From positions 27,895 through 59,894 of the forward strand of contig JBMFJD010000006.1 of assembly GCA_049974095.1 (NCBI GenBank): a DNA stretch of 32,000 nucleotides. The letters run 5' to 3'. The DNA is from Nanopusillaceae archaeon. GTDB lineage: Archaea; Nanobdellota; Nanobdellia; Nanobdellales; Nanobdellaceae. Position numbers and translations under genes: made by a program. The notes under the pieces are model-generated. The model ran no database searches and was not told the DNA's origin. It worked only from the letters and a program-made list of their open reading frames with translations. Numbering within the stretch: the first letter of the stretch is position 1; every line of letters begins with the position of its first letter. This document shows, one piece after another, positions 3,512 to 28,299 of the stretch.

Positions 3512-4102
3512 ATGGTAAAAAAAATATTAGCAGCGCTTTTATTAATCATGGCACTATCAATACCAATATTTTCCGAATATGTAGAGGCGAAACTAGTAGG
3601 AGTATATAGCATACAAGTAGGGTCAAATAAGTTAACAATTTCTAATGGTCATGTTGATCTACCATTTATGACAACAAATGGAACACTAGTAGTAGAAACA
3701 AAGCATGGAAACTTTAATATGGTATTTCATGGAGAGATGACAGTAACTCAAGAGGGAACAAATATGACAGTAGTAAAGTTTGTACATGAAAATAGAGTAA
3801 CATATATCAATATAGCTGTATACGAGAATATGACAAAGATAACAGAAAAATTCTTTGAGCACTTTGTACATACATATGGAGTAAATCTAACACAAAACAT
3901 TACAATAAGACCAGTTGATAATGATACATTTGTATTAGAAGCAAAGCAAAATGCTACTGCAATGTTGTTATGGTTTATACCAATACGTGTGGTAATAGGG
4001 GAACAAATGTATGTAAATGCAACTAATGGAAATGTAGAGAAAGTAGTATATATAAGGCCATGGTGGTGGTTCTTAGTATTTGGATATAAGACTGAACAAT
4101 GA
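3512..4102 (+). CDS. Secreted or membrane-associated glycoprotein (signal peptide)
   Basis: The N-terminus MVKKILAALLLIMALSIPIFSEYVEA is signal-peptide-like. Multiple N-x-S/T sequons (NGT, NMT x2, NLT, NIT, NDT, NAT x2). Hydrophobic C-terminus WWWFLVFGY. ATGA overlap with the next gene. Confidence 0.65.
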   Translation: MVKKILAALLLIMALSIPIFSEYVEAKLVGVYSIQVGSNKLTISNGHVDLPFMTTNGTLVVETKHGNFNMVFHGEMTVTQEGTNMTVVKFVHENRVTYINIAVYENMTKITEKFFEHFVHTYGVNLTQNITIRPVDNDTFVLEAKQNATAMLLWFIPIRVVIGEQMYVNATNGNVEKVVYIRPWWWFLVFGYKTEQ

Positions 4103-7100
4103 AAAAGGTTAGATTATTACTTGTATTTTTATTATCTCTATTTTTAGTTAAATCTATCTTTTCTCAAGAATATCCATATACTAATTATTCTATAATTACT
4201 ATAAAAAACAATGTTAACTCTAACCTTTATAATTATCCTGTCTTAATTACAATAAACGATACACAAGGTTTAATACTTAATGGATATTTAAATCCTACAT
4301 GTACTAACTTAATATTCCAACAAAATGGACGGCAATTACCTTATTTTGTTCAAACATGTGGTTATATATCTGTAAATACATCTACAGGATTCAGCAATTC
4401 TACAATATTGCTAAAAGATTATCCATCTATTCCTGCAACTCTATCTCCTATAAACGGATCTTGGTGGTATAATAATACATGGACAGGATCAGCCCTAAAT
4501 GAATATGTTTACATAACATTGGATATTAAAGGTTATGTTTATCCTGTATGGTTAGAGGTAAATACAAGTGGACCTGAATATGCAATATGGGTGAATGGTA
4601 AATATTTATACAATAGTAATCCGTGGAATTTTACATATAATTCTCAACAACTAGCAAATATGACAGATCAATTATTTGATATAACTAATTTTATAGTACA
4701 AAATGGTATAAATAATATATTAATATTCGCTACTAGTAATACTACAAATAATACATTAACATTCAGAATAATAATACCATCTGCAAATGTTACTATAACT
4801 CAAGATGGTGTATATTACTTACCTGGTACAATTTGGGTAAATGTATCATCAATACCTGCTAACAATTATACTACTCTGTATATGCTCTTTACATATCCAA
4901 ATATATCAACGATTACGAATAATTTATCTAATGTATTTATTTACGGATCATATCCTATATCAAATACACATACTAGTACATCTACAACTACAGATGCCTT
5001 TTTTACCTATCAAGGTGCATATGTATATGCTCAGTGGGTATTAAATCCTACATTATACATTGTAAATGATTATAGTACAAATACTTCATACTTTATTACA
5101 CCATATACAATAAATAATATTTCAGTATCAACATATAATGCAGGATGTACAATTAGTGGAGTAAATATATTTTACTATTTGACAACATATATGCCAAGTA
5201 GTATGAGTCTTAGACAATTTGTTACTGTCAGTCAAAATGCTTCTTACTATATACCTTCATATTCTACTGTTAGAATAGGTTTACAAACTCCAATATTCTG
5301 GTTAGATGGATATATATTGAACATAATATTTAATAGAGCGCCAGGAGGATGTGGAAGGATATACGTTATAAGTGGAATGAATGCTTTAGAATTATATGGT
5401 TTTTCTTCTTTAGGAAATTACCCACTATATGGTATACCTGTAAGTTCTGCAAATTATTTACCATCTTCTACAATTACTGGTTATTTTAGAAAATATGTTT
5501 ATCCACCACCTTCAGTATCTATAAATACTGTACTTAATGTAAGTTATCCAATATCTATAAGTATACAATATCCACAGCAAAATTCTACAGTTGTAGTAAT
5601 GCCAGATAATCCAGTAATACAACCAGTAGTTACAATAAATTCTATTGTTCCAATAACTATCTGTAATATGACTCTATATGGTGGTACAAATGTAATCTAT
5701 GATGGTGTATGTACAAATTCAATAAATGTTACTGGGGCATCTCCAGGATACTATACATTACTAGTATCAGCATCAAACCAATATAATTCAACAAATGCTA
5801 GTGTAACATTTTATTTAACATTTGCAAATGGAACATACGGATTCTTTTATGTTTCTTATCCACCTAATGTTCCATCTACACCATTTTATGTAAATGTATC
5901 AACAACATGTACTGGTAATATATGTGCTGCTGGTAAGATACAATTAACAGTTCCACCAGTATGTTATACTCCTATATCAACTGTTGATATAACACAATTA
6001 TTGCCTGGACAAGTATTTAGTACATCATTCATTGTTCAATGTGCATATTCATCCAGTCCTTACAATTTTAATGTTAACGTATATCAATCTGGTAATTTAG
6101 TATACACAAATAATTTCACCTTAGATGGACCAAGATTATCTTTATCATATACTACAACTAATGATACATTATATGTATATGCATATCCATCTGGATGGGG
6201 ACAAAATATAACATTACTAGTTACTGTGAAGCAAGGATGGGTTATAAACAGTACAACTACTCAAAGTCAATTCTATGTAAATGTTTCAGACAATACCCAA
6301 TCATTAATATACACTAGTCCTGTATTGCCAGGACAAACATACACAGTATATGCTAATGTATATTATCCTCAACTATTTGCGACATATCCAGTACAGAGCA
6401 TATTTGTAACAATACAAGCAACTCAACCACCTACTATATATTCAGTTACTTCTCCATCTACTAATTATAATGGATTACCTACGGACATTTGTTATAATGT
6501 TTCAGATCAAGTTGCAGTAACAAGTGTATCTGGATATTATATAAATGGTTTGGGACAGGTAGTATATTTATTTAATAGTACATACTTTAATCAAACTGTA
6601 TATGCATGTACTCCAGTTAATTTAACCCTGGGTAATTATTCTATATATGTGAAAGCATGTGATTATTCTGGTTTATGTTCTATATTTCCACCAGTATCTG
6701 TAAGTATTATTCCATATCCTCAATACAATATTATAATATATCCATCTAATGTATCCGTATTCCATTCATCTCCACAAGTAATAAGTATATATTATTCCCA
6801 TCCATTAGAACAATATACATCATGCACTATAACATCAAATGATGAAATGTTCAATATGAAAGTTACATTATATAATAATACAAATAATACTATTACATTT
6901 TCATTATCTCCAGGAGAATATAACATGTTTATTATATGTAGTTCAAATTATACTGCAATAGCTAAACCAATTGTTATAATATATGATACCATGCCACCAA
7001 TCATAGAAGGATTTAATGTTACAAATAATATTTTATACTTGTATTTATATGATAATATTGGATTAGCATATGCACAATATAATGTTACAGTTGGTAATAC

Positions 7101-7911
7101 TACAAATACATATAATGTTTTGTTATCTGGTACATCATATATATTACAAATACCCTTAGCACTATCATCGATAACAATAGAAGGGTACGTATATGATATA
7201 TCTGGATTATCTGTGCCATTTGTATATTCATATAGCTTAGCTCAGCCGATATCGCCTCAAACTCAAGATGTTACCAAACCAAGCACACAAACAAATATTA
7301 CAAGTACACAAACAAACATTACAAATGTTACTAACTTTACAAATATAACTGTATATCAATCATATCAATCTAATTATATTGCATTATTAATACCAACAAT
7401 AAATGCTACAGTAATACATAAAGGCCTACAAATAACAGCATCAGTTACAGCTAGATATTATCCTGTAAATTGTACAATATATCCATTTAATACAACTATG
7501 TTAATACAAACATCTGCGCCATATACTACAATAATTACACAGAATATAGTCCCCGGTACATATGTTGTATATGCAATCTGTACGGATAGTGTTGGAGATA
7601 TTGCTACATCAAATATGGTTGTATTGAATATTACATCTCAAGATATCTACATGTTTGGAGCATCCGCATTTGTCGGAACGCAAAATGGAATATACAGTAT
7701 ACTGCTATTAGGAGGTGTAGTTGCATTACTTGGATACTTAATGAGATCTAGAGTACTTATTCTAATTGGTGCTGGATTGGCAGCATCGCTTGCACCATTG
7801 TATACTGGTATAATATTAGGACAACCAGTATTTGCTGCAGTAGAGGTTGTAGTTATACTTGCAGGCTTATATGTACTAAATAGATATTTATTATATAATG
7901 CTTTCGAATAA
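4099..7911 (+). CDS. Giant secreted, sequon-rich multi-domain protein: DUF2341-like module split by a galactose-binding-like jelly roll, tandem Ig-like domains, C-terminal TM helices
   Basis: 1270-aa uninterrupted ORF with signal peptide MKKVRLLLVFLLSLFLVKSIFS. I count 16 N-x-S/T sequons in the first 280 residues. Repeated modules of about 90 aa end in patterns such as SPGYYTLLVSASN, LGNYSIYVKACD, SPGEYNMFIICSS and VPGTYVVYAICTD. Three hydrophobic helices at the C-terminus. Confidence 0.85.
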   Translation: MKKVRLLLVFLLSLFLVKSIFSQEYPYTNYSIITIKNNVNSNLYNYPVLITINDTQGLILNGYLNPTCTNLIFQQNGRQLPYFVQTCGYISVNTSTGFSNSTILLKDYPSIPATLSPINGSWWYNNTWTGSALNEYVYITLDIKGYVYPVWLEVNTSGPEYAIWVNGKYLYNSNPWNFTYNSQQLANMTDQLFDITNFIVQNGINNILIFATSNTTNNTLTFRIIIPSANVTITQDGVYYLPGTIWVNVSSIPANNYTTLYMLFTYPNISTITNNLSNVFIYGSYPISNTHTSTSTTTDAFFTYQGAYVYAQWVLNPTLYIVNDYSTNTSYFITPYTINNISVSTYNAGCTISGVNIFYYLTTYMPSSMSLRQFVTVSQNASYYIPSYSTVRIGLQTPIFWLDGYILNIIFNRAPGGCGRIYVISGMNALELYGFSSLGNYPLYGIPVSSANYLPSSTITGYFRKYVYPPPSVSINTVLNVSYPISISIQYPQQNSTVVVMPDNPVIQPVVTINSIVPITICNMTLYGGTNVIYDGVCTNSINVTGASPGYYTLLVSASNQYNSTNASVTFYLTFANGTYGFFYVSYPPNVPSTPFYVNVSTTCTGNICAAGKIQLTVPPVCYTPISTVDITQLLPGQVFSTSFIVQCAYSSSPYNFNVNVYQSGNLVYTNNFTLDGPRLSLSYTTTNDTLYVYAYPSGWGQNITLLVTVKQGWVINSTTTQSQFYVNVSDNTQSLIYTSPVLPGQTYTVYANVYYPQLFATYPVQSIFVTIQATQPPTIYSVTSPSTNYNGLPTDICYNVSDQVAVTSVSGYYINGLGQVVYLFNSTYFNQTVYACTPVNLTLGNYSIYVKACDYSGLCSIFPPVSVSIIPYPQYNIIIYPSNVSVFHSSPQVISIYYSHPLEQYTSCTITSNDEMFNMKVTLYNNTNNTITFSLSPGEYNMFIICSSNYTAIAKPIVIIYDTMPPIIEGFNVTNNILYLYLYDNIGLAYAQYNVTVGNTTNTYNVLLSGTSYILQIPLALSSITIEGYVYDISGLSVPFVYSYSLAQPISPQTQDVTKPSTQTNITSTQTNITNVTNFTNITVYQSYQSNYIALLIPTINATVIHKGLQITASVTARYYPVNCTIYPFNTTMLIQTSAPYTTIITQNIVPGTYVVYAICTDSVGDIATSNMVVLNITSQDIYMFGASAFVGTQNGIYSILLLGGVVALLGYLMRSRVLILIGAGLAASLAPLYTGIILGQPVFAAVEVVVILAGLYVLNRYLLYNAFE
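7285..7326 (+). repeat. Tandem 21-nt repeat x2 inside the CDS, encoding sequon repeats TQTNIT(S/N)
   Basis: ACACAAACAAATATTACAAGT / ACACAAACAAACATTACAAAT, read directly. It lies in a linker KPSTQTNITSTQTNITNVTNFTNIT. Confidence 0.8.
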
Positions 7912-8152
7912 AAAAGATAAAAAAATAGAAGAAGCCGCAAAGCTAATTGCCAGAAAATATAGGTACTCTATGTTAGCAGAATATATATATAGAAACAGGT
8001 TGAAGAATATAGCTAGATTTTTAGGAGTATCTCCTGAGGAAATTGAGAAATCAGAAGCCATCCAGAATTTCTATAAAATGATAAAAGAGAGAAGGTTTGA
8101 AATGGCCAAAAAATATCTTGACTGGTTAATAAAAAATTATGGAAAGAAATAG
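7898..8152 (+). CDS. Small basic helical protein, member of the FLG-motif paralog family (4 copies in the window)
   Basis: 84 aa. IARFLGVSPEEIEKSEAIQNFYKMI aligns with VAKFLGTTPDKVANSRAVRNYILFT of ORF 25833. Overlaps both neighbours by 14 nt. Confidence 0.6.
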   Translation: MLSNKKDKKIEEAAKLIARKYRYSMLAEYIYRNRLKNIARFLGVSPEEIEKSEAIQNFYKMIKERRFEMAKKYLDWLIKNYGKK

Positions 8153-8867
8153 AGTAATAGGATTAAGTATAGATTTAGCAGTATTCATAATATCTGTAGT
8201 AGTATTAGCTTATGCTTGGTATCTTCTATCAGTATTAATATTACAGGGAGCATTGCTACAGTCAATAGTTCAATTACAGGAGCAACAACAAATATACCTA
8301 TATTACATAACATTAGCTCTTACTGCTATGCTATATTATGTAACATCAGCATTGCTCGGTAAGCCATATTCACCAACATATCGTACACTGTTTGATAAAA
8401 AGCAATTGTTATGGGCTATTATATTTATACTAATATATATACCTGGTTATATAGCTGGATTGATAAGAATGGGTATACCACCAATATTAACTGTAGTATA
8501 TGCAATACCATTTGCGATTGTATTAGGTGTAATGGGTTTAGTAGAAAACAGATTCTTTATAGGAACATTAGGGTTCGGTATTAAATATGAGCTAGAGAAA
8601 AGAGATATTAGATTATCACCAATATTAGCTGCAATTTTGGTAGGATTAATTGCAACACTATGGCATTTATATATGTTTGTTAGTTTATTAGTAAATGCAG
8701 CATCTTTATTTGTAATAATACAAGTAGCAATCTCAGTATTTATATTTTTCTTCTTTGGTGCTATAATTAGCTTTGACAATGATAATACATGGACATGGGA
8801 TATAGTGCACTTTATGGTTAATTTTGCAGCAGGCTTATTAGGAGCAAAAGGATTTATAATAATATGA
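8139..8867 (+). CDS. Polytopic membrane protein, possibly a CPBP (CAAX protease/Abi)-type intramembrane protease
   Basis: 242 aa with about 7 TM helices. Motif order LVENRFFIG ... LIATLWHLYMF ... IVHFMVNFAAG resembles the CPBP motifs EExxxR / FxxxH / HxxxN. Only the third motif is a clean match. Confidence 0.6.
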   Translation: MERNRVIGLSIDLAVFIISVVVLAYAWYLLSVLILQGALLQSIVQLQEQQQIYLYYITLALTAMLYYVTSALLGKPYSPTYRTLFDKKQLLWAIIFILIYIPGYIAGLIRMGIPPILTVVYAIPFAIVLGVMGLVENRFFIGTLGFGIKYELEKRDIRLSPILAAILVGLIATLWHLYMFVSLLVNAASLFVIIQVAISVFIFFFFGAIISFDNDNTWTWDIVHFMVNFAAGLLGAKGFIII

Positions 8868-10285
8868 GTGACAAATTAAACATATTTTTGATAGTATTGA
8901 TATTATCCGGTTTTATAATACCAATATTAGTATATGATATATATGTAGCACATTCAAATATAGTATCATGTAAATTTGAATCTAATACTGTAAATGTTGG
9001 AAGTTCAATAAATTATCTATGTTATGGTGTTTATAATTTAACCCAAGGGGACAATCTATTTATAATTCCATTACCTGGTACAGGCAATATAATTAGTTCA
9101 TATATTTCATTTATTAATGTACAGACTCCAATAGTATATGTTAACCTTAATGGTACTGTACCTCCAAACTCGCAAAATGTTCTTCAGTTGTATATACCAT
9201 CAAATGCATATAATATAAATATATATGGAGTATTACAAGGGATATCGTCAAACAATCAGTATCCTTTTAATTCATCAATAACTGGAGGAAATTTTCCATT
9301 ATACTGTAGTCCTTCTTGTATATACAATCAGGGCCTAATAATAAACCAATCTGGTTCATATCAACTTATAGTAAATTCTGGTTATGGAGGTGGAGGTGTA
9401 AACTATAAAATATATGGATCATATAATTTGCCAAATCCAATATATAGAATATTTGTTGGTGGATTAGAAATATTTTCAGGTCAAATATCAGATACCAGAA
9501 CAATACCAATACCGATTAATAAATCATCTACAGTTAGTATAAATGTTGACGGATATCCAAATGCTCAAGTGCTATTCTATATAGAACAGAAATGTTCATT
9601 AACTGGTGGATTTTGGAATTGTTCAGCATCTGTAGATCCATTAAATTCATCTAGATCCTTAATAGTATGTACAACTAATGTACAATCAACCTGTTCATTA
9701 TCAAATATTAATATTGAGATACCATTTAATGTAGAGTACTCTAAATACCTAAGAGATGCTGAAAATATAGAAATTTCGGTTAATGGGGTTAGGGTAAACG
9801 CTGATACTAGAGGATTATACAATCTAGTGCCATACTTTGTAATTTATAATATAAATCAGGGTGATAACTTAGTACAAATATCTTATAGAGTACCTTATAT
9901 AATACCAAAAGCACAAGTGCAAACTGGTGTATGTTTAATTTATCCTCCAAGTATTACTGTATATAAATTATCTACTCAATTACCAGTAAATACTACAATA
10001 AGTATAAAAAATACAGGTAATGTACCAATACAAGTTTCTATATATCCATCATCAATAAAAGCAAATGTATACCCATCTGATACAGTGATACAACCAGGAA
10101 GTACGGTAGATATATTGGTTAGTATTGAGGAAGGTAATAACGGATATATAATAATTGAAGGTTGTTCAGCAACACCTTACAAGTTGCCAGTTTCGGTTGA
10201 GTATATGTCATCAATAGTATCACCATTGATAATGATAATTGGTTTATTGGTATTAATAGGATTAATAGTTGTAAGAAAGGTATGA
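8864..10285 (+). CDS. Secreted sequon-rich beta-sandwich protein with a C-terminal TM anchor
   Basis: 473 aa with an N-terminal hydrophobic anchor/signal (IFLIVLILSGFIIPILVY). The motif YN(L/I)(T/N)QGDNL occurs twice. The C-terminal module TISIKNTGNVPIQVSIYPS...QPGSTVDILVSIEEGNNGYIIIEG is CARDB/NEW3-like. Ends in the TM segment PLIMIIGLLVLIGLIVV plus RKV. Confidence 0.8.
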   Translation: MSDKLNIFLIVLILSGFIIPILVYDIYVAHSNIVSCKFESNTVNVGSSINYLCYGVYNLTQGDNLFIIPLPGTGNIISSYISFINVQTPIVYVNLNGTVPPNSQNVLQLYIPSNAYNINIYGVLQGISSNNQYPFNSSITGGNFPLYCSPSCIYNQGLIINQSGSYQLIVNSGYGGGGVNYKIYGSYNLPNPIYRIFVGGLEIFSGQISDTRTIPIPINKSSTVSINVDGYPNAQVLFYIEQKCSLTGGFWNCSASVDPLNSSRSLIVCTTNVQSTCSLSNINIEIPFNVEYSKYLRDAENIEISVNGVRVNADTRGLYNLVPYFVIYNINQGDNLVQISYRVPYIIPKAQVQTGVCLIYPPSITVYKLSTQLPVNTTISIKNTGNVPIQVSIYPSSIKANVYPSDTVIQPGSTVDILVSIEEGNNGYIIIEGCSATPYKLPVSVEYMSSIVSPLIMIIGLLVLIGLIVVRKV

Positions 10286-10707
10286 TTGTAAAATCAAGCA
10301 ATAGATATTATTTTGTTCAGAATAGAGTTGCTAGAGATATATTAAGTAAACTATCCGATAGAAGATATTACAATATATCTATGTTACAAGATGTGATAGA
10401 AAAATATGGCAGAAAAAAAGTTTATGATACAATAAAATTGTTGAGTAAATATGGATTAATCGAAATAAAAAAGAACTATTTGGGTAGGATATACTTTAGG
10501 AGAAATTATTATAAGTCTAGAATATTTGATATATTACTTAGTATAAATATCATATTATCTACAATGATCTATATATTGGCTCATCAGATCATTAGTTATT
10601 CAAATTTTTTATCATTATATGGATTGTTGATTGGTGTCATATCAAGTATTAGTATATTGTTATTATTCATATTGAGGAAAATATATGACGATTCTGTGGT
10701 AATATAA
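10282..10707 (+). CDS. Membrane-tethered winged-helix (wHTH) protein
   Basis: 141 aa. The N-terminal RDILSKLSDRRYYNISMLQDVIEKYGRKKVYDTIKLLSKYGLIEIKKN...RIYF is wHTH-like. The C-terminal half has two hydrophobic helices (IFDILLSINIILSTMIYILA, LYGLLIGVISSISILLLFIL). Confidence 0.6.
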   Translation: MIVKSSNRYYFVQNRVARDILSKLSDRRYYNISMLQDVIEKYGRKKVYDTIKLLSKYGLIEIKKNYLGRIYFRRNYYKSRIFDILLSINIILSTMIYILAHQIISYSNFLSLYGLLIGVISSISILLLFILRKIYDDSVVI

Positions 10708-10783
10708 AATTTATAAATCTTTTCATTGTACTCAGTTGGTACAAGCATTAGTAATATAAGCGAGTTCCGTATAAATATATACT

Positions 10784-11887
10784 ATGGTATTCAACGGCCA
10801 AGCCAGAAGCAAACAGACAGAGTATCTATTAATAGGAGTATTTCTATTGCTAGTAGGTTACGCAGTATTCCATTATACATCAGCACCACCAGCAGCAGTA
10901 GCACAAGTACAATGTGCACCAGTATTAGCACAAGTATATGGATTAGCTGGTCAGCAAGTAAGTGTACCAGTAAAAGTAGTTGATTCAGTAACAAAGAAAC
11001 CAGCTGCAGGAGCTTCTATATACGTATTTGATACACAGCCATACGGATGGGACTTGCAACAAAGATGGACCTTAATAAGATCTATGGTAGCAGGACAAGT
11101 ACCTAGTGCAATAGTTAGTGATCTAGGTAATGCTTCAATTTCAGTATCATTACCACAACCAAACCAAACAGAAACATTATATATGGTAATACAACATCCA
11201 GGATATTGGTCTGAATTGTATACATTATCTGTAGGATACAATCCAACAGTATCTGCATCTTCAGCACAACAATGTATACAACTATTTCCATATTCAACAG
11301 TACAAAATATTTTAGGAACACTAGTACAAGTACAAGCACAAAAAGTAATTGATGGTCAAACATATCAATTAACAAACTTACAATTATCACCAGTAGGATC
11401 ATTAGTACCATCAATAGGCAACATATCTTTAGGAGTATATAGTTTAGGTACAGCATACTATGCTAAATTACAAACATACTATACTGGAGTCGTAAATGGA
11501 GGATCAATAAGAATAACTGGAATTAAATTTACAACATTAGATAATTTGCAAGATCAAGGAGTAAAACAAATATCAGTACAAATAACATCATCCGGACAAA
11601 CATTATACCAAGGAGTTATATATGATTCTAATAATATAAACTTGCCACTAGGAGATGGACAACAAAATAAAACATATACAGTAAATGTTGGTGGAAACTT
11701 AGGAGTTGTAGAATTACAACAAGGATCCACACTACAGATTCAAGTATCTGTTATAGCAGATGCTAGTTCTGATCCAAATAATTATAATGCAGGATATTTG
11801 AATCAAGGAGAAGCAATATTACAGATACAATTATTGTTGGCGGATCCACAACAAAATAATCCAATATCGCTAGTAGTAACCGGTTAG
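10784..11887 (+). CDS. N-terminally anchored protein with atypical (GC-richer; Q/G/V/A-rich) composition; candidate abundant structural protein
   Basis: 367-aa ORF with TM segment YLLIGVFLLLVGYAVFHY near the N-terminus. Its codon usage leaves three long spurious antisense ORFs. A T5 + T8 tract follows it. Confidence 0.8.
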   Translation: MVFNGQARSKQTEYLLIGVFLLLVGYAVFHYTSAPPAAVAQVQCAPVLAQVYGLAGQQVSVPVKVVDSVTKKPAAGASIYVFDTQPYGWDLQQRWTLIRSMVAGQVPSAIVSDLGNASISVSLPQPNQTETLYMVIQHPGYWSELYTLSVGYNPTVSASSAQQCIQLFPYSTVQNILGTLVQVQAQKVIDGQTYQLTNLQLSPVGSLVPSIGNISLGVYSLGTAYYAKLQTYYTGVVNGGSIRITGIKFTTLDNLQDQGVKQISVQITSSGQTLYQGVIYDSNNINLPLGDGQQNKTYTVNVGGNLGVVELQQGSTLQIQVSVIADASSDPNNYNAGYLNQGEAILQIQLLLADPQQNNPISLVVTG

Positions 11888-11902
11888 ACAAGGCAACACA
11901 TA

Positions 11903-11920
11903 TTTTTAAATGTTTTTTTT
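11903..11920 (+). terminator. T-tract terminator candidate (T5 ... T8)
   Basis: TTTTTAAATGTTTTTTTT lies 16 nt after the stop at 11887. Archaeal termination typically occurs at oligo-T tracts. Confidence 0.4.
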
Positions 11921-11931
11921 AATTATGTTTT

Positions 11932-12537
11932 ATGAAAATAGATAGCATAAAGAAAAAACTAAAGATATCTAAAAATAATAGGAGATATGAAAAATTGAAT
12001 ATATTTTTATTTGGAGTATTGGTTGGGCTACTTTTATTTGCGTTTATATTCATATTATCTGGATATCCACGTACAGTACCTTTTATTAAGCCACTTATCA
12101 ATGTAAAACAACTACCTCCAGGATCTCTGGATATGGTAAATATTAATCATATTTATTATTATTCTGGTGTATTGGATACGTTGTATTTTTACTTTACTAA
12201 TACAAGGATTTGCAGATATGATAACCTTTTTACAGCAATGTTCTATATATCAAATAATGGAATATATAATGATTCGACTATATATTTAATATTTGATAAA
12301 AACCATATAAGAACAGCTGTATACTATAATGGTACATTAGAGTTTTTTGATGTTTCAGCCCCAACCTATATATTTTATCCAAATCAAACAAAAATAATGG
12401 CATGTACTCTACCTAGAGAATTTGGTTATGTAACAAAATGTACGGTTATATATGATAGCGGAACAGAAGCATATACAGATCCTCAAGTTGATGATCTTGT
12501 TGTTAAAAAAGTATTTGCCAATCATAATAATTCATGA
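11932..12537 (+). CDS. Type II-anchored or secreted protein
   Basis: 201 aa. Basic N-terminus (KKKLKISKNNRRYEK), then TM segment LNIFLFGVLVGLLLFAFIFILSG. The ectodomain carries sequons and cysteines. Confidence 0.6.
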   Translation: MKIDSIKKKLKISKNNRRYEKLNIFLFGVLVGLLLFAFIFILSGYPRTVPFIKPLINVKQLPPGSLDMVNINHIYYYSGVLDTLYFYFTNTRICRYDNLFTAMFYISNNGIYNDSTIYLIFDKNHIRTAVYYNGTLEFFDVSAPTYIFYPNQTKIMACTLPREFGYVTKCTVIYDSGTEAYTDPQVDDLVVKKVFANHNNS

Positions 12538-12582: not shown

Positions 12583-14751
12583 ATGAGGTACTTAGTGTAC
12601 TCAATAATCGTTATAATTGGTATTATATTTTTATCAACAATTTTACCTAGTATGACTATTCATAATACTAGAATAACTGAAAAACAGAGTGAACAGAATT
12701 TAGTTGTCGTACAGCAGACATCTCCAGCAATATCTTATATGTCTCAACCATTTATATCTGGCATATTAACAATTAACAATGAATCCATACCATTTTATTC
12801 ACCAGTAGTTACATTTCCGGGATTGACTTTTATATCAACAGGATCTCCATTATACCCAACAACTTTAACAATTTTTGATAAACCAGTTCCATCGTTATAT
12901 ATTACTGATGACCAAATTGGTACAAATGTATTTGGAACTGTATCTTACTATTTTATGACACATACTAGTACAGACTTATATGAGAATCCTTATTCGTCAA
13001 TAATTGCATATGCTCCAGATTCTGGTTATGTCATGGTAACCTCTTATACAATAGATATATATGATAGTAATAATGTACGTATATCACCTACTGGTATTGG
13101 TATGTCTCTATCTGCTGATGGATTAGGAAACATTTATATGTATGATTCTCAAAAAGCTATTGTTAGACCTTTAGTACCACCAAATTATCTAACCGTATCC
13201 AGTTATTATAAATTTGTTGTAACTAATCTATATGTAGCTGGTATATCTAGTTCTTCACAACTGTCTCAATTATTATCTGCAAACAGCAAATCTACAGAAT
13301 ATTTCAATAGTTTATTTGGTATAAATACAGGATATAATCCAACTGTATCTTTTAATATACCATTTGTAGTATATCCATATTCAGCATCTCAAAAAATAAC
13401 TGAAAGAAATCCAATAACAAATTCTAATTTGAGTGCAACATTCTCCCCATTATTTTTCATACCTCCTGGAAGTACAACATGGACTGACAAGATGGTGTAT
13501 ATACCATATGTGATACCATTGTTTGAATCTCTATCTGCACTACCTCCAAGTACAGTTTATGTTTATCCAAATGGTACATATAAGGCATTATACAATGGTA
13601 TAAAGCCATATAAGATAGATATGCCTGTTATGATTGTTGCTGACGGTAAAATAATAATACTGTCTACTGCAATAACTGGAGTAGATCCATTAACTGGCTA
13701 CTTTATTAGACAACAATATCCAGGACAACAAATAGGGTGGTTTGCTGGTCCAGGAGTACAATGTAGCTATGTGTCTATATCAAATCCGGATGTAAAGCAA
13801 TTATCACCATATTCAGAAGTATTTTATATATCTGATACAGGATATGTATCAGCAACAGGTATAGAAGACTCTATTGTAGTTAATGAGAAGATATTTGTTG
13901 TTGATCCATATAATCAAGTTGCATATTTATTTAATATAACGTTGAATATGACACCACAACAGCAAACAAATAATCCGGCAGCATGTTCATTAAATGTGCA
14001 ACAATCTGGTACTATAGTATCGGTTACAAAATATAACCTGCAAGGAATAATATCATTGCAAAATATGAATAAAATATATATAGACAATGAGTATGCAACC
14101 AAAGGAAAGATATTATTCTATAGCATGGATACATTGGGTAATGTTACTGTATATGAATTGGATCTAAATACAGGATCGATAAAAACATATACTATACAAG
14201 TACCATCTATATATGGAGCAATAGTAAGGTATTCTAATCCAATAGTGCATGGAACAGCTGGTCAGTTATTAACTTATGTATCACAAATTAATGATACATA
14301 CTATATGAATACAGTAATTCCCGCATACATACAAGGAAACATACCATTGCTAAATTCCACACAAATGCCAACAAATTATACATTTGCATATTCATATGCA
14401 GAATTTCCTATAACAATATATTACAATGGTTCTAAATCAGCATCGAATGTTGTTGTAATACTAAATATAACAGATCCACAGATCTTATCTGCTATTGGTA
14501 CACCTACAGCACAAGATATACGTGTGTTTATCAATAATACATATGGAACTGACTACTATGCATACCAAGGATTAACATATTCAATATTACAATACAAACC
14601 AGGCAAATTATTATCAATAGCAATATTGTTGCCATATATAAATCCAGGAAACAATACTATATATATGTATATGGGATATCCATATGCGCAATCTGTAATG
14701 GTACCGGCAAATACGTTATTAAATCAATATCCTGTATTAAACTATGGCTAA
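12583..14751 (+). CDS. Large secreted sequon-rich protein with a C-terminal DUF2341-like domain
   Basis: 722 aa with signal/anchor MRYLVYSIIVIIGIIFLSTILPS. The C-terminus AQDIRVFINNTYGTDYYAYQ...LLSIAILLPYINPGNNTIYMYMGYPYAQS matches the remembered DUF2341 pattern (DiRF ... vWVkvP.i.a..ttiYmYYGn). Confidence 0.8.
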   Translation: MRYLVYSIIVIIGIIFLSTILPSMTIHNTRITEKQSEQNLVVVQQTSPAISYMSQPFISGILTINNESIPFYSPVVTFPGLTFISTGSPLYPTTLTIFDKPVPSLYITDDQIGTNVFGTVSYYFMTHTSTDLYENPYSSIIAYAPDSGYVMVTSYTIDIYDSNNVRISPTGIGMSLSADGLGNIYMYDSQKAIVRPLVPPNYLTVSSYYKFVVTNLYVAGISSSSQLSQLLSANSKSTEYFNSLFGINTGYNPTVSFNIPFVVYPYSASQKITERNPITNSNLSATFSPLFFIPPGSTTWTDKMVYIPYVIPLFESLSALPPSTVYVYPNGTYKALYNGIKPYKIDMPVMIVADGKIIILSTAITGVDPLTGYFIRQQYPGQQIGWFAGPGVQCSYVSISNPDVKQLSPYSEVFYISDTGYVSATGIEDSIVVNEKIFVVDPYNQVAYLFNITLNMTPQQQTNNPAACSLNVQQSGTIVSVTKYNLQGIISLQNMNKIYIDNEYATKGKILFYSMDTLGNVTVYELDLNTGSIKTYTIQVPSIYGAIVRYSNPIVHGTAGQLLTYVSQINDTYYMNTVIPAYIQGNIPLLNSTQMPTNYTFAYSYAEFPITIYYNGSKSASNVVVILNITDPQILSAIGTPTAQDIRVFINNTYGTDYYAYQGLTYSILQYKPGKLLSIAILLPYINPGNNTIYMYMGYPYAQSVMVPANTLLNQYPVLNYG

Positions 14752-17608
14752 AAGAGTATTAGCTTTAATAGGTATTATTTTATTATTTTCTTATAGCATA
14801 TACCCAGATCAATATATAACTGTAATTAGTGGTCAGCTAGGATCAGGATCTCAAGTTAATATATGTTATAATACAACTTCAACAAAACACTATTATATTA
14901 TTCAAAATAATCCATATTTACAGTATTATCCATTATTTGGTGGTATTAATACATACACAGGTAATATATACTTTACGGGATTATTAAATTCAAGGTATTC
15001 ACAATATTCAAATAATACATTAACTTTTATTCATGATATATCAAGTGGTAATACGTTTTTACAATTTGTGTCTCCTGATGGTGCTATATCTGCAAATATA
15101 TTGAATAATCCATACAACATGCTTTCTCCAATAACATTTGTATCAATGCCATCTATACAGTTTACAGGAAATAATGTTACTATATCATATATTGCTATCG
15201 GTAATTCTCCAGGAATATACTCTTATCAATTGGGACAACCTGTAGGTGTATCAAAACAGGTTTATGAATGTCCTGCTCCAATAGTCAATATAATATCACC
15301 AGTTAATGAATCATCATTCAGTTCAGGACAAGTATTTAATCTGACAGTGCAAGATGCACCAGTATATAATAACTTATCTATATCTGCAATACAATATATA
15401 ATACTTGTTAATGACCAAGTCTATACACAAAATATAACTATACCACCCCAACCTTATACTGGGTCTATAAGAAATTTCCCAATAACAATTAATGCTGGAG
15501 GTAATACCACTATAAAAGCCATTGTAGCATATCAATATTCTTCTGGATGTATTGGAATAAATGCTACATCAATAAGTGTATACATTACAGCTCCATTTCA
15601 ATTGGTAATAAATAATATTGAGCCAATAAGAGCTGTACCAAATACTTCAATAGGATACAATGTAATAAGTTCTACAAATTTATCAGTTAAGTTTACATTT
15701 TCTGGTAATGTATTATATCCAACACAGTTGGTCTGTTCAATATCGGCAAATCTATTATCACCTTGTTCAAATGAAACAGGATTATCTTCAATAATTACAT
15801 TATATGGACCAGTAACATATACAGGACCAGAAGTTTCGCCTACAGTGTATTTAAATATGACAAATGCAATACAAGGTATATACAGAGTATCAGTAATATG
15901 TAATATAAGTTCAACAACTCTATCAAAATTTGTAGATATATTATATGCATATAACCCAAATACTTGTAAATTGTTCTGTTCAGCATTAAATGGATACTAT
16001 AATGGAACATATTGTTGTGGCTATGGTGGAGAACAACTACCATCTCAAGTAACTGGATATCCAGACCCAACATATTATAATTCATCAACATGTTCCTTGG
16101 TAAAGTTACAGCCAGGACAATGTGTAAATAATAAAGATGTTCCTCCAGACGGATGGATATGTATAAACTCTACAACTGCAGCATATGTTAATTATTCATG
16201 TAGTGTTAATTATCCAAAGATAGATCCTCTTGCTATAGGACAAATAATACAAAATATAACTACATTAAAAGATTGTGGACCAGATGCAGTATGTTCATAT
16301 GGACAATGTGTACCAATAGGTCAAAATATAACACCATCACTATCAATAGAAGTAATTTATCCACAACAAGAACAAAATATATATGCACCAGATGGAACTA
16401 TATTTGTAGAGTTTATACCAAGGGACAATATACAACCGGAGGTATTATGTAGATTATATAATAATAACGTTATGGTATCTGAGGGAAGGTATGCTAGTGG
16501 AAATATAACAATAGTACAGATACCAGTAAAGTCAGGATTAAATATACTCAATATAACATGTACTGATATATATAATATTACAAATTCTACGATGGTAAGA
16601 TTTATGGTAACAACAGGTTATATAGTTACCTCTCCTAAAGGATGTGGTTTACCTTATGTATGTTTATCACCTACCCAAGCAGCACTTGTAAAATATGATA
16701 TTGTTGGAGGCATGTGTAATTATACCGTAATACAGACTTATAATGCTTCACCAGGGCAATACTGTTTTGGAGGTTATCTAATAAATGCAAGTCAAGTATC
16801 AGTTTCAGAACAATTATTCGGAAAGTCTTGTTCACCAGATTTAATGACAATATTAATACAACAGTTAACACCAACTCAACAAGGAGTAGCAGTAAATCTG
16901 TATCCTATACAAACAGCTAAATATAGATGTATGTTTGGATTATCTATAGAACCAGATCAACTACAATCATTTGATAAAATGATAATACCAGTATGTACTC
17001 CAAATAATACAATAGAAGAATATCAAATATTTGCGCAAAATGGAACAATATTGTTTGAAAAGATTGGTGAGAAACAGTGTAATAATCTATGTGTTGCAGG
17101 ACTTTGTGTACAACCAGGATATATAATACAGCCACCAACTGTACAATTGATTAGTGTACCTAAAAAAGTTGCGGTTGGAGATAATGTAACAGTTTCATTT
17201 ATGGTATCAAGTGCATATCCAACAGCCTATGTACAGATATATGTAGTATCACCAAAGAATTCAACCTTAGTATATAGTGGTGTATTTGAAACTAACAAAT
17301 TGGTAGATGCTACATTTATAATGCCGGATCCAGATCAAGCAGAGATATATGTGTTTGCTCTTGACCCAGCTGGTTTTACAGGTTCATCTTCAGAAGTGGT
17401 AGAATTAACATCTGCTGTTACAACACCAGAAACAGGTCCAACACCTACACCAACTCCTCCAACAGGAGTTGGAGGAGGATTACCTTCTGTAGGAGCAGCA
17501 ATTGCTTCTGCTTTAACCTCACAAGGAGGTCCTAATATCATATTAATACTAATTGCTATAGCTATTGGTTCTGCTGTAGCATACTACTACTTTAGAAAGA
17601 GAAGATAG
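14744..17608 (+). CDS. Large secreted protein: Ig-like domains, two Cys-rich modules, Thr/Pro stalk, C-terminal TM + RKRR
   Basis: 954 aa with signal peptide MAKRVLALIGIILLFSYSIYP. Cys-rich stretches end in CGPDAVCSYGQCVPIG and CNNLCVAGLCVQPG. The C-terminus is TTPETGPTPTPTPPTGVGGGLPS...IILILIAIAIGSAVAYYYFRKRR. Confidence 0.85.
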   Translation: MAKRVLALIGIILLFSYSIYPDQYITVISGQLGSGSQVNICYNTTSTKHYYIIQNNPYLQYYPLFGGINTYTGNIYFTGLLNSRYSQYSNNTLTFIHDISSGNTFLQFVSPDGAISANILNNPYNMLSPITFVSMPSIQFTGNNVTISYIAIGNSPGIYSYQLGQPVGVSKQVYECPAPIVNIISPVNESSFSSGQVFNLTVQDAPVYNNLSISAIQYIILVNDQVYTQNITIPPQPYTGSIRNFPITINAGGNTTIKAIVAYQYSSGCIGINATSISVYITAPFQLVINNIEPIRAVPNTSIGYNVISSTNLSVKFTFSGNVLYPTQLVCSISANLLSPCSNETGLSSIITLYGPVTYTGPEVSPTVYLNMTNAIQGIYRVSVICNISSTTLSKFVDILYAYNPNTCKLFCSALNGYYNGTYCCGYGGEQLPSQVTGYPDPTYYNSSTCSLVKLQPGQCVNNKDVPPDGWICINSTTAAYVNYSCSVNYPKIDPLAIGQIIQNITTLKDCGPDAVCSYGQCVPIGQNITPSLSIEVIYPQQEQNIYAPDGTIFVEFIPRDNIQPEVLCRLYNNNVMVSEGRYASGNITIVQIPVKSGLNILNITCTDIYNITNSTMVRFMVTTGYIVTSPKGCGLPYVCLSPTQAALVKYDIVGGMCNYTVIQTYNASPGQYCFGGYLINASQVSVSEQLFGKSCSPDLMTILIQQLTPTQQGVAVNLYPIQTAKYRCMFGLSIEPDQLQSFDKMIIPVCTPNNTIEEYQIFAQNGTILFEKIGEKQCNNLCVAGLCVQPGYIIQPPTVQLISVPKKVAVGDNVTVSFMVSSAYPTAYVQIYVVSPKNSTLVYSGVFETNKLVDATFIMPDPDQAEIYVFALDPAGFTGSSSEVVELTSAVTTPETGPTPTPTPPTGVGGGLPSVGAAIASALTSQGGPNIILILIAIAIGSAVAYYYFRKRR

Positions 17609-17668: not shown

Positions 17669-18109
17669 ATGGTATCTATACTGGATAGAATAAGCGCAAA
17701 AGAAACACTAGTGTTATTTGTAGCATCAGCATTTACAGTATTTCTAGTAGCAGCAATAATCTCAATGTTCGGAGTTAGCAGCACTCTAGGATTTATATTA
17801 TTGGCATTATCAGGAGTAGCATTAGGATTTGTCTTGAGCAGATATGCACCACAAATAGCAGCATATCTAAAGTCACAACCATTAACGGCTATTTTAGCTG
17901 TTTCAGCTTTGTTAGGAGTATCAGGATTTGTAGCTGTATTTCTAGCATTTATACCAACACCATACGCTGCAACAGGTACAATTACATTATCTGCTGCAGC
18001 AATACAATCAGCATTAGGAACAGGAATTAACAATTTTATAACAATGTCACTATCAGGATTTATAATGGGCGTAGGTAGCTATTTCGGAGTGTCAGTATTT
18101 GGTAAATAA
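17669..18109 (+). CDS. Small, very hydrophobic 4-TM protein (A/G/S/V-rich, GC-richer); candidate major virion membrane/capsid protein
   Basis: 146 aa, almost entirely hydrophobic helices (LVLFVASAFTVFLVAAIISMFGV, LGFILLALSGVALGFVL, LTAILAVSALLGVSGFVAVFLAFI, ITMSLSGFIMGVGSYFGVSVFG). It has its own upstream A/T box and follows a terminator. Confidence 0.7.
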   Translation: MVSILDRISAKETLVLFVASAFTVFLVAAIISMFGVSSTLGFILLALSGVALGFVLSRYAPQIAAYLKSQPLTAILAVSALLGVSGFVAVFLAFIPTPYAATGTITLSAAAIQSALGTGINNFITMSLSGFIMGVGSYFGVSVFGK

Positions 18110-18122
18110 CACGTGAGGCTAG

Positions 18123-18833
18123 ATGAATTTAAAATATTTTTTAATAATCCTATCTTTTATATTTATACTAATTAATATATTTTTAGCTGTACTAATATAT
18201 AATTTTATAATTGTATCACCTTCATTTAGTATCTCTTTATCATCTAACTATACATTTCCATATGTAGATACAAAAAATTCATTAATACTACCAGGATCGA
18301 TGGTTGTTTTAGCTACTTCTAATACTCCTGGATTTTCAATTAATTTAGATAGACCTACATTTTTATGGTCTGCTGGAATAGGATACCTGTTATTGTCTTT
18401 ATCAATATTTTTTATAATATTGGGAATAGCATTAATCATAACATATGAAGAAAATAATATTGTTTATGGACTACTATTGATTTTGCTATCACCAATTATT
18501 TTTGCATTATCCATTGTATTTAACTCACTGTCATACCCTGGTGATATCTTATGTTATAAAAAGCAAATACATAATCATTACTCATATATATGCCATAAAT
18601 ATATCTATGGTAATAGTACAAATGTAGTTCTATTGAGAGTATACGATAATTCAACGGAAGTTATACCAATACAAGAGGTAACAGGAAAGATTGTTTATAA
18701 TATTCCACCACCAGTCGGTACATTATTGTTTATATATAAGTCCAGTTTAGATTTTATATCAACTTTATATGATATTATAACAAAAGGTAATATACCTCTA
18801 GGGTATAAGGTAGAATATATTAAAGTAGAATAG
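18123..18833 (+). CDS. Membrane protein (about 4 TM) with a C-terminal soluble domain
   Basis: 236 aa. TM segments YFLIILSFIFILINIFLAVLIYNFIIV, GYLLLSLSIFFIILGIALIITY and LLLILLSPIIFALSIVF. Confidence 0.6.
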   Translation: MNLKYFLIILSFIFILINIFLAVLIYNFIIVSPSFSISLSSNYTFPYVDTKNSLILPGSMVVLATSNTPGFSINLDRPTFLWSAGIGYLLLSLSIFFIILGIALIITYEENNIVYGLLLILLSPIIFALSIVFNSLSYPGDILCYKKQIHNHYSYICHKYIYGNSTNVVLLRVYDNSTEVIPIQEVTGKIVYNIPPPVGTLLFIYKSSLDFISTLYDIITKGNIPLGYKVEYIKVE

Positions 18834-19198: not shown

Positions 19199-19471
19199 AT
19201 GTTAGCTAATATTTTTATTTTTCAATTATCAGTTATTGCAGATATCATATTATTCGGATTTGGCATATATATGTCATATAGGAATAGAATAACAGAGATA
19301 CCAGATGTTTTACATGCTGTAATGATTGGAATATACTCTTCAGCATTTTTATCATTTATGTTATTTCAAGTTAATCCATTATTTATTATAGGTACTGGTT
19401 TTGATTGGTTTATTTCGTATGTAAGTGGATGGTTAATTGGATTATCAATTAACAAACTTATCTCATCTTAG
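19199..19471 (+). CDS. Small membrane protein (3 TM)
   Basis: 90 aa, starting 2 nt after the previous stop. Hydrophobic helices throughout. Its 3' end overlaps the convergent MCM gene by 14 nt. Confidence 0.5.
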   Translation: MLANIFIFQLSVIADIILFGFGIYMSYRNRITEIPDVLHAVMIGIYSSAFLSFMLFQVNPLFIIGTGFDWFISYVSGWLIGLSINKLISS

Positions 19472-20615
19472 TTATATCTGCTATTTTATCATATACTTCG
19501 TAGACTATTTTATCTGTGATATGTGTCTTATTTATTTTTGCATATGCGTATGCAAATCTTAACCATTTTATAGAGCCTCTAACACTGTTTTCCTTTGATT
19601 CTTCTATGATATCACCAATGGCATTTTTTACACCATTAATATCTTTGATTCTCGGTATAAATCCTTCTGTAAATTTTATATATGATCTTATTATATCATC
19701 TCCTCTATTATACAATTCATAGTTACTTGAATGTTCTATAACATGACCTACAATATCTTTAATCTCTTTTTTTGTTGGTGTTTTAAACGATGCTACCAAA
19801 TCAAATCTATCTAATAATTCTGGCCTAAATTTAGTCCTGTTAGAGGATATCATAATTCTAACTTTAGCATCATATCCTATATGCATTCTAGCACCTGTAA
19901 GTATTACTCTACCTTCTTCCATAGCAGATAATAAAGGATCAAGATCTCTATTATTTATTTTATCTGCTTCATCTATACATAATATTTTACCATTAGCAGC
20001 CATTAGTGGTGGAGGTGAAGCTTCAAAAGCCTCTGGGTTTAATGATCCAGATAAGCCAGCAGATGTAGTTCTTAAAGATAAATATATGCCCTCTGATACA
20101 TTAGCTTGCCATTGTAATAATAATGTTTTACCAGTACCAGGATCACCTAACAGAGCAATGTGTATTCTTGATCTAAATCCAGGATCTCCATCAGAAAATA
20201 ACTGCAATAGCATTATTTTTTTTACTAATGGTATGATACCAGAATCTTTAACATATGGTGCTACATATTGTAATAAATCATCAAAAGGATTTTTTAATGT
20301 TATTTTACTATTATTGATTTCAAGATCTTTGTATCTTTTGTATTCGTTAATCATATCTAATAATTTATTTATTGATACTATCTCTATAATTCTTGGATAA
20401 TATGGATTTCTTCTAGCAATTTGGTTATCAAATAAAAATCTTATAGTATTCTGACTTACTAATCCCATTAGATCATCTTCAAATACTATAATATCAGAAT
20501 ATATAGGTATACCTATTAATTTTGCTTTGTCATGGTAGTACGGTAAGGCATACTCTAAAAATTCGAACAAATTTTTAAGATCTTTGATAATGTCCTTAGC
20601 AATATTGTGACCCAT
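19458..20615 (-). CDS. mcm: MCM-family AAA+ helicase, short form (mini-MCM: about 150-aa N-terminal region + AAA+ core + lid)
   Basis: Walker A LLGDPGTGKT (nt 20126-20152, read on minus). Walker B ILCIDEADK (19959-19979), compared with MCM CIDEFDK. SAMEEGRVILTGA compared with MCM EAMEQQTISIAKAG. Sensor-1 IMISSNR. Arginine finger LLDRFDL compared with MCM SRFDL. Sensor-2-like SVRGSIKWLRFAYAYAKI. Confidence 0.85.
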   Translation of the reverse strand: MGHNIAKDIIKDLKNLFEFLEYALPYYHDKAKLIGIPIYSDIIVFEDDLMGLVSQNTIRFLFDNQIARRNPYYPRIIEIVSINKLLDMINEYKRYKDLEINNSKITLKNPFDDLLQYVAPYVKDSGIIPLVKKIMLLQLFSDGDPGFRSRIHIALLGDPGTGKTLLLQWQANVSEGIYLSLRTTSAGLSGSLNPEAFEASPPPLMAANGKILCIDEADKINNRDLDPLLSAMEEGRVILTGARMHIGYDAKVRIMISSNRTKFRPELLDRFDLVASFKTPTKKEIKDIVGHVIEHSSNYELYNRGDDIIRSYIKFTEGFIPRIKDINGVKNAIGDIIEESKENSVRGSIKWLRFAYAYAKINKTHITDKIVYEVYDKIADITKMR

Positions 20616-20652: not shown

Positions 20653-20943
20653 ATGGGTAAACACATGTCAATACGTGCATATGTACTACTGGCATTAGTA
20701 TTGTTACTAACGATATCAGTGATTATGGTACTGGTCTTTTCATTATATAATAAACCTAATAGCACAAAGAATGTATCAACGATACAATTCGGGCAAAATA
20801 CACTGTACATATATAATATAAATGGAAATATATATGTATGTACACAAAATATATCGGGCGAGACATGTTTGGTGGCTCATAACTCATTAATATGTCCGGA
20901 AACTACATGCCTGCAAATATATAATATAGTAAATATATCATGA
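20653..20943 (+). CDS. Small secreted or anchored Cys-containing protein
   Basis: 96 aa. N-terminal TM segment AYVLLALVLLLTISVIMVLVFSL, sequons, 4 Cys. ATGA overlap with the next gene. Confidence 0.5.
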   Translation: MGKHMSIRAYVLLALVLLLTISVIMVLVFSLYNKPNSTKNVSTIQFGQNTLYIYNINGNIYVCTQNISGETCLVAHNSLICPETTCLQIYNIVNIS

Positions 20944-25458: not shown

Positions 25459-25469
25459 AATTATAAATA

Positions 25470-25491
25470 ATAACAAATATTTATATGTGTT
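25470..25491 (-). promoter_or_regulatory. Copy 1 of the exact 22-nt promoter/operator-like motif
   Basis: ATAACAAATATTTATATGTGTT (minus-strand reading AACACATATAAATATTTGTTAT). Separated by 11 nt from the minus-strand ATG at 25458. Identical to 28278-28299. Confidence 0.6.
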
Positions 25492-25594
25492 AATTCGATT
25501 TATTGGGCAATAATTAATATAAAATACGTATCTATTGAATAATTCAAAAAACATAAAGTATATGCTTTTATATAACCTCATATATCTATTATAT

Positions 25595-28266: not shown

Positions 28267-28277
28267 TATTACATATT

Positions 28278-28299
28278 ATAACAAATATTTATATGTGTT
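28278..28299 (-). promoter_or_regulatory. Copy 2 of the exact 22-nt promoter/operator-like motif
   Basis: ATAACAAATATTTATATGTGTT, identical to 25470-25491 and with the same 11-nt spacing to the downstream minus-strand ATG (28266). Confidence 0.6.

Follow-up and report, generated by a model that had tools for sequence, protein, structure and literature searches.

CPBP proteases are abundant in prokaryotes and mostly of unknown function; a role in sorting was first shown experimentally in 2025. The myxosortase MrtX of Myxococcus xanthus (MXAN_2755) is a sorting protease for surface proteins, for which MYXO-CTERM cleavage has been demonstrated by experiment—a protein of 239 amino acids (aa) with seven transmembrane (TM) helices that carries E146/E147 in TM4, H188, and H223/N227 in TM7 (PMC11980579). 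In 16 of 17 cases, the MrtJ gene adjoins that of its one JDVT-CTERM client, and MrtA/CGP-CTERM of Thermococcales (NF040590) comprises an archaeal CPBP, the archaeal counterpart of myxosortase (bioRxiv 10.1101/2023.06.07.544157). A CAAX-like protease has also been reported on an Asgard archaeal plasmid (PMC11529989), so there is precedent for CPBP genes on mobile elements of archaea. Here, we describe a gene from a 32,000-nucleotide (nt) stretch of contig JBMFJD010000006.1, binned with a Nanopusillaceae archaeon; this whole stretch is referred to below as the window. The open reading frame (ORF) at 8139-8867 on the + strand encodes a divergent CPBP/Rce1-like, seven-helix membrane protein of 242 aa, and is followed directly by the gene for a 473-aa membrane protein (8864-10285, + strand). 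We favour, with roughly even confidence, a reading in which the former would be a highly diverged, catalytically intact CPBP endopeptidase with the 473-aa protein as its dedicated client. A preliminary description of this DNA had held that a virus-encoded membrane protease acting on the C-termini of the large tail-anchored proteins would be new, a claim that is too strong given myxosortase, MrtJ, MrtA, and the Asgard plasmid protease.

The identification rests on the ORF itself, its homologues, a structural model, and profile comparison. The reading frame runs from ATG to stop, and its N-terminus (MERNR/MVENR) is common to all homologues, indicating that the start codon is correct. Relative to three close relatives with protein identities of 81-86%, the ratio of nonsynonymous to synonymous substitution rates (dN/dS) is 0.14-0.17, which identifies the ORF as a real gene under purifying selection. 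An AlphaFold2 (AF2) model built with 11 homologues has seven helices, as the preliminary description had read from the sequence—residues 2-35, 40-73, 87-111, 116-154, 160-184, 190-214, and 218-234—with a mean predicted local distance difference test score (pLDDT) of 83 and a predicted template-modelling score (pTM) of 0.83. The three CPBP motifs that had been proposed are present in the expected order: LVENRFFIG, with E136, lies in helix 4; LWHLY, with H176, in helix 5; and IVHFMVNF, with H224 and N228, in helix 7. For comparison, we assembled a reference set from 120 loci in GTDB genomes with a pattern encoding EELxFRG, which yielded 74 proteins with a downstream HxxxN/D; all four of those checked are members of PF02517 (E 1e-12 to 1e-21). 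Both spacings in the window protein fall within the ranges of this set: 40 residues from E136 to H176 (reference 25-93, median 33) and 48 from H176 to H224 (reference 21-75, median 37). The Glu of ENRFF and the two His residues, whose conservation had been singled out for checking, are invariant in the family, as is N228, the HxxxN pair of motif 3 being retained in 15/15 sequences. In the 15-sequence alignment, in which identity descends to 24-28%, just 11 of 242 columns are invariant, and these residues account for four of them; the hypergeometric probability of this coincidence is 2.4e-6, and the motif signal is therefore above chance.

Distant members connect the family to recognised CPBP proteins. 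One of them, P0014 (locus L016), is 32% identical to the window protein over 199 aa (BLASTP E 1e-15) and was recovered (E 3e-14) when 1.84 billion proteins were searched with the family profile. The match of P0014 to PF02517 spans profile positions 5-93 of 93 and, at 25.7 bits (E 1.4e-5), exceeds the gathering score of 22.4; a second member, P0013, scores 21.9 bits, just under that threshold. In both matches, the Glu and the HxxxN residues fall at about PF02517 positions 19, 87, and 91, as in a bona fide CPBP protein. Comparing profiles directly with hhalign, the 15-sequence family aligns to the 74 reference CPBPs over 95 columns (P 7e-4, probability 26%); the 11 close members alone align in the same region (P 1.2e-3), the four distant members reach a probability of 62%, and P0014 alone reaches 90% (P 1.6e-6). 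The alignment pairs E136 with the first Glu of the EE motif, N137 with the second, and the next Gly with its Gly, while H176 is paired with the motif-2 His and H224 and N228 with HxxxN. The real score of 26.5 compares with 13 for reversed decoys and 11.7±2.3 for column-shuffled ones. Furthermore, a CPBP hidden Markov model (HMM) that we built and ran on 235 ORFs of the window and related loci gives its four highest ranks to family members, and Foldseek, run with the AF2 model against 350,542 PDB chains, places MmRce1 (4cad) first, which we take to be the only CPBP structure among the fold matches. Taken as a whole, these results make it very probable that ORF 8139-8867 belongs to the CPBP superfamily. 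We regard the family as a derived CPBP clade in which E-N replaces E-E and both the Arg and the motif-2 Phe are missing.

Several observations weigh against this assignment and the catalytic competence that goes with it. Neither the window protein nor its 10 closest homologues match PF02517 even at E up to 10, and the window protein has no direct match in Pfam, NCBIfam, PHROGs, or PADLOC, lenient thresholds included; scanned member by member against the same four libraries, the family gave PF02517 matches for P0013, P0014, and weakly P0015 and no others. PDB sequence searches with two profiles (A1 and A2) and with P0014 returned no CPBP match, and the fold match to MmRce1 is weak (E 0.38, TM-score 0.41, root-mean-square deviation 9.6 Å). 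Decoys shuffled in 20-column blocks score 21.1±2.3 in hhalign, with a maximum of 27.4, close to the real value, which implies that much of the signal resides in the motif blocks themselves. Motif 1 reads E-N and not E-E, with the Asn replaced by Thr in P0015; the Arg of EExxxR is Ile or Val throughout the family, the following Gly being kept in most members; and motif 2 lacks the Phe at -4 (Ala here), such that of FxxxH only H176 is kept. Finally, the placement of the motifs in the AF2 model is by helix and not by distances between residues in space. A sceptic could thus argue that the protein is polytopic but has no relation to CPBPs, being for instance part of a virion or of a transport system, and that its E, H, H, and N resemble the CPBP motifs by chance or convergence, citing the missing direct match, the Foldseek E value, the whole-family hhalign probability, and the block-shuffled decoys. 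We consider this highly improbable, however, because P0014, a clear family member, passes the PF02517 threshold and reaches 90% in hhalign, the CPBP HMM places family members at the head of its ranking, and the four invariant residues sit on the expected helices. The CPBP assignment of the preliminary description accordingly holds by remote homology, through P0014, hhalign, and the invariant residues, but not by direct match.

The family is small, with about 16 sequence clusters among billions of proteins. A set of 5.8 billion proteins contained 11 clusters (90% identity), and the exhaustive profile search of 1.84 billion proteins yielded only five representatives; one further sequence is P0016. 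In one source, a family member carries the annotation "phosphate starvation-inducible membrane PsiE," probably a mis-annotation, and others have "hypothetical protein."

Gene order ties the CPBP gene to the 473-aa gene. The start of the latter overlaps the CPBP stop codon as ATGA, and the two belong to a chain of overlapping genes—4099-7911, 7898-8152, 8139-8867, 8864-10285, and 10282-10707—with successive overlaps of 14, 14, 4, and 4 nt. The preliminary description had placed the CPBP gene in translational coupling between the genes for a 1270-aa and the 473-aa protein; the 473-aa gene does overlap it by 4 nt, but a conserved 84-aa gene lies between the CPBP gene and the 1270-aa one. In an all-against-all comparison of loci, a homologue of the 473-aa protein is encoded directly downstream of the CPBP gene in 15/15 informative loci, that is, those in which the downstream region is present. 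The genes usually overlap, and partner identity ranges from 22 to 70%, the lower values coming from the distant loci L011 (30%), L016 (28%), and L012 (22%). The CPBP gene is the best conserved of the module. In closer loci, the conserved order is giant, small ORF, CPBP gene, 473-aa homologue, and a protein of about 140 aa. The giant corresponds to the 1270-aa protein (4099-7911, + strand), a sequon-rich surface protein with a signal-like N-terminus, three C-terminal TM helices, and a weak DUF2341 match; it is kept in loci with a CPBP protein at least 40% identical and is missing from L011 and L012, whereas L016 ends 610 bases upstream of the CPBP gene and is uninformative on both the giant and the small ORF. 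Co-occurrence with tail-anchored giants, which had been suggested as a check, therefore holds for the 473-aa gene in all 15 loci but fails for the upstream giant in L011 and L012. The small ORF (7898-8152, + strand) encodes a basic, helical 84-aa protein with no TM segment, overlaps the 1270-aa and CPBP genes by 14 nt each, and is kept upstream of the CPBP gene in closer loci (56-93 aa) but is absent in the most distant ones. The chain, which extends over 3512-10707, begins with a gene for a 196-aa secreted, sequon-rich protein (3512-4102, + strand) and ends with one for a 141-aa protein (10282-10707, + strand) that is conserved in closer loci and has weak winged-helix-like matches at its N-terminus and two C-terminal TM helices. 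Beyond the chain lies a gene for a 367-aa protein rich in Gln, Val, and Ala (10784-11887), which has a single TM helix at its N-terminus and matches no family; it is kept in all closer loci, its homologue in L011 lies directly upstream of the CPBP gene, and it is a candidate for a major structural protein.

The 473-aa partner, characterised from its alignment, an AF2 model, and its position in every informative locus, is anchored at both ends. In the model (pLDDT 80.6), an N-terminal TM helix (residues 2-29) is followed by an all-beta ectodomain, a C-terminal TM helix (452-470), and a short basic tail; more distant homologues carry a second C-terminal TM helix. Five Cys residues are invariant (253, 269, 277, 357, and 434), the last of them within a GC motif (G433, C434); this motif precedes the C-terminal helix by 17-25 residues and sits in the loop that joins the final two strands of the last immunoglobulin (Ig)-like domain. 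Residues within and beside the C-terminal helix are not conserved, and the basic tail is generic. Within the N-terminal helix (8864-8950), a GFxxP motif is kept in homologues with at least 35% identity (L001, L002, L005, L006, and L008). Such conservation would be unusual for a cleavable or disposable signal peptide, and the motif could mark a site of intramembrane recognition or cleavage.

These features suggest how the pair might operate. The 242-aa protein would be an Rce1-like glutamic intramembrane endopeptidase, made from the same overlapping gene chain as its client. Its active site can be drawn by analogy to MmRce1 and MrtX: activation of a water molecule would fall to E136 together with H176, and the oxyanion hole would be built from H224 and N228. 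We infer that such an enzyme would cut the partner in or beside one of its two membrane anchors, either of which could be removed, and that the cut would release one end of this doubly anchored protein and so give rise to its mature surface or envelope form. MmRce1 (4CAD), the best fold match, has the same types of catalytic residue on equivalent helices but differs in having eight TM helices and in acting on a prenylated substrate with a C-terminal CAAX box, which none of the element's ORFs that we read possesses. The resemblance to MrtX extends to size (239 vs. 242 aa), seven TM helices, Glu in TM4, His in TM5, and HxxxN in TM7. However, MrtX has the canonical EExxxR and dozens of MYXO-CTERM clients, encoded elsewhere, in which an invariant Cys is needed, whereas the protein described here has E-N without the Arg and a single adjacent partner. 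In genetic arrangement, the closest parallel is MrtJ/JDVT-CTERM, where a CPBP-type gene likewise adjoins one client gene, their co-occurrence is conserved, and the client has a C-terminal TM helix with basic residues. JDVT clients, by contrast, are otherwise unrelated proteins that share a short C-terminal domain with an invariant Cys beside the TM helix and a DP motif inside it, while the partner proteins here are homologous over their full length, have their Cys 17-25 residues before the TM helix, and possess an additional N-terminal TM helix; moreover, MrtJ resides on proteobacterial chromosomes and this gene on an archaeal mobile element. MrtA, too, is an archaeal CPBP, with a proposed role in the processing of thermophile surface proteins rich in Thr/Ser and ending in a TM helix and basic tail, but it is a chromosomal housekeeping enzyme whose clients have Cys-Gly-Pro at the TM boundary, and no CGP motif was seen here. 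No family member matches any NCBIfam model, a library that we presume to include the Mrt models and NF040590.

The step from neighbour to substrate has its own difficulties. Adjacency indicates a functional link and is not proof of an enzyme-substrate relation; the partner, unlike the clients of known CPBP sorting enzymes, is without a Cys signature beside a TM helix; and Cys434 may simply form a disulfide. Even so, a clade that standard annotation misses, that keeps its catalytic residues with an E-N motif 1, and that has a candidate client fixed by gene order across deep divergence offers a two-gene system, CPBP gene and partner, that is directly testable. It could show how surface proteins of Nanoarchaeota viruses or mobile elements mature, about which almost nothing is known.

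A broader role was proposed in the preliminary description, in which the protease would be a sorting or maturation enzyme for several large proteins (ORFs 4099, 8864, 14744, and 22044). On that reading, it would recognise C-termini composed of a TM helix and basic residues in the manner of a housekeeping sortase. Housekeeping CPBP sorting enzymes do exist (MrtX, MrtA), the giant is co-linear with the CPBP gene in closer loci, and several of the large proteins indeed end in a TM helix and basic tail, their quoted C-termini being correct as read. Among them is a Cys-rich, sequon-rich protein of 954 aa (14744-17608, + strand) with a Thr/Pro stalk, a TM helix, and an RKRR tail. On the other hand, we looked for a C-terminal signature shared across the large-protein families and found none, including no invariant Cys beside the TM helix; beyond the generic helix and basic tail, the C-termini of the four ORFs share no motif, and a general sorting system is for this reason not supported. 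The 1270-aa protein ends in its three TM helices with no basic tail at all, and in the distant loci L011, L012, and L016 only the 473-aa gene accompanies the CPBP gene. We therefore judge general sorting to be quite unlikely. The idea of a dedicated maturation system survives in narrower form, confined to the gene found alongside in 15/15 loci. The label "glycoprotein" must likewise be restricted: N-glycosylation sequons are enriched in the 1270-aa protein (53 vs. 24.6±3.9 expected) and the 954-aa protein (31 vs. 11.8±3.0), and also in the 558-aa and 196-aa proteins, but not in the 908-aa protein or in the 473-aa partner itself (8 vs. 7.2 expected).

A further reading directs attention to the host. 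Rce1-type enzymes cleave after lipid-modified Cys, and no such Cys motif was seen in the element's own proteins, where the only C-terminal Cys found ("...SCYG" in a 183-aa ORF) is not part of a CAAX box; the protease could instead act on host proteins—lipid-modified or prenylated Cys proteins, or host surface proteins—during infection or egress. This would leave the strict, often overlapping pairing with the 473-aa gene unexplained, and no candidate host protein can be named; we hold it to be very unlikely.

The pairing itself would also be compatible with a protein that does not cleave its neighbour at all. CPBP proteins were first tied to bacteriocin self-immunity, as for PlnI and SkkI; many are of unknown role, and some, such as SpdC and Abx1, are non-proteolytic regulators. 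The protein described here might similarly be an immunity or superinfection-exclusion factor, a regulator, or a chaperone, for example one that shields the carrier cell from the element's surface or fusion protein. Tight pairing with a membrane-active partner would fit toxin/immunity-like logic, and the Asgard plasmid protein is annotated "CAAX-like protease self-immunity." Like that protein, CPBP/"Abi" immunity proteins are found on mobile elements or beside the genes whose products they concern; they differ in going with small peptides or toxins and not with a 473-aa all-beta membrane protein. Searches of the 242-aa protein, three distant homologues, and three neighbouring genes returned no PADLOC match, and the Abi-type alternative raised in the preliminary description gained no support from them. 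In addition, invariance of four catalytic-type residues over deep divergence would not be expected of a pure scaffold, and the gene lies within a block of structural, surface-protein-like genes and not in a defence island. We thus think a role of this kind unlikely.

A more specific version of the proposed protease-client pair is suggested by the fold of the partner. Its top Foldseek match in the PDB is alphavirus E1 (E 2.6e-6), in many entries including Semliki Forest virus (SFV) E1 1rer, and matches in a viral library are to glycoprotein polyproteins of bunyaviruses, hantaviruses, nairoviruses, and nido-like viruses. The bunyavirus and nido-like virus polyproteins contain class II fusion proteins. 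The E values lie between 3e-6 and 1e-3, yet TM-scores reach only 0.15-0.19 and arrays of ciliary Ig domains score just as high; the partner has no Pfam HAP2/Fsx1 match, and its modelled likeness to class II fusion proteins is only a lead. A second indication comes from L012, an 18-kb contig (Logan SRR14699978) with a distant CPBP homologue at L012:10001-10762. Two genes downstream, directly behind the cassette, L012:12860-14704 encodes a 614-aa protein with a precomputed Pfam Fsx1 match and a sub-threshold match to HAP2-GCS1 (E 2.9e-4); the contig also carries radical SAM/SPASM and Alba genes. On this evidence, the CPBP gene and its partner could together be a membrane-fusion module primed by proteolysis, belonging to a nanoarchaeal virus or mobile element and linked by the cassette in L012 to archaeal fusexin elements. 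The 473-aa protein would then be a class II (fusexin-like) fusogen or its companion, kept inactive by its two anchors until the intramembrane protease cuts one of them and arms it. Furin priming of prM/p62 in flaviviruses and alphaviruses would be a parallel, but with the difference that the enzyme here is an element-encoded CPBP. We regard such a module as improbable, although a fusogen-like partner would have implications for cell entry by archaeal viruses or mobile elements and for where class II fusion proteins originated.

Comparison of window positions 17669-18833 with L012:14701-15870 revealed further shared gene order. A 236-aa protein with three TM helices (18123-18833) is 30% identical (E 7e-19) to the product of L012:15151-15870, and in both elements its gene is preceded by one of about 146 aa and by that of a large surface protein, which is the 954-aa one in the window and the Fsx1-like one in L012. 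By this neighbouring order, the 954-aa protein occupies the position of the fusexin-like gene. We rejected a relationship between these two proteins, which have no detectable sequence similarity, and likewise one between the 473-aa family and the Fsx1-like protein, for which sequence comparison, including hhalign, was negative.

As for the element as a whole, the window has a G+C content of about 29%, no tRNA genes, and densely packed ORFs, mostly on the + strand, whose ends overlap; no wrap-around or long repeat was found in its 32,000 nt. Many ORFs encode membrane or secreted proteins without known relatives. Confident family assignments are limited to a short MCM-like AAA+ ATPase (19458-20615, - strand; PF00493, E 4e-18), a Hjc-type Holliday junction resolvase (29049-29372, + strand; E 6e-10), and a MarR-like winged-helix protein (20940-21461, + strand). 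The relatives of the ATPase, which occur in archaeal tailed viruses and in an Altiarchaeum virus, are all distant. Homologous contigs are of 3-35 kb and come from metagenomes, two of them from a metagenome-assembled genome (MAG) labelled Nanopusillaceae. This MAG holds two diverged copies of the cassette, ACP5GJ_03585/03590 (P0006/P0021) and ACP5GJ_03790/03795 (P0026/P0022), on contigs of 35 kb and about 28 kb, which may reflect either two related elements in the bin or a population mixture. In a collection of 50,697 phage and archaeal-virus records, blastn with window positions 4100-12000 and tblastn with the CPBP-like protein and its partner found no match, and neither 185,579 GTDB species genomes nor IMG/VR contain a relative of the 242-aa family. 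Its absence from the latter two indicates that it is not a core nanoarchaeal gene and does not occur in catalogued viral contigs. Given that nothing related was found in any of these collections, the element looks like an uncatalogued virus or plasmid associated with Nanopusillaceae (Nanoarchaeota), which are heat-loving nanoarchaea, a host assignment made by binning only.

Two minor observations concern other parts of the window. A 96-aa protein (20653-20943) has a weak match, below threshold, to the archaeal type IV pilin N-terminal domain (PF07790, E 0.005). Elsewhere, a 38-nt direct repeat containing a TTTATAT box occurs at 25454-25491 and 28262-28299, in copies that are 89% identical. Each copy lies just upstream of the start of a minus-strand gene, ORF 24772-25755 (start MEIDNIDEY) and ORF 27958-28266, and the repeat is probably a common promoter or leader of the two. 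MEIDNIDEY is likely the true start of ORF 24772-25755, in which case the annotated ORF of 327 aa is about 100 codons too long.

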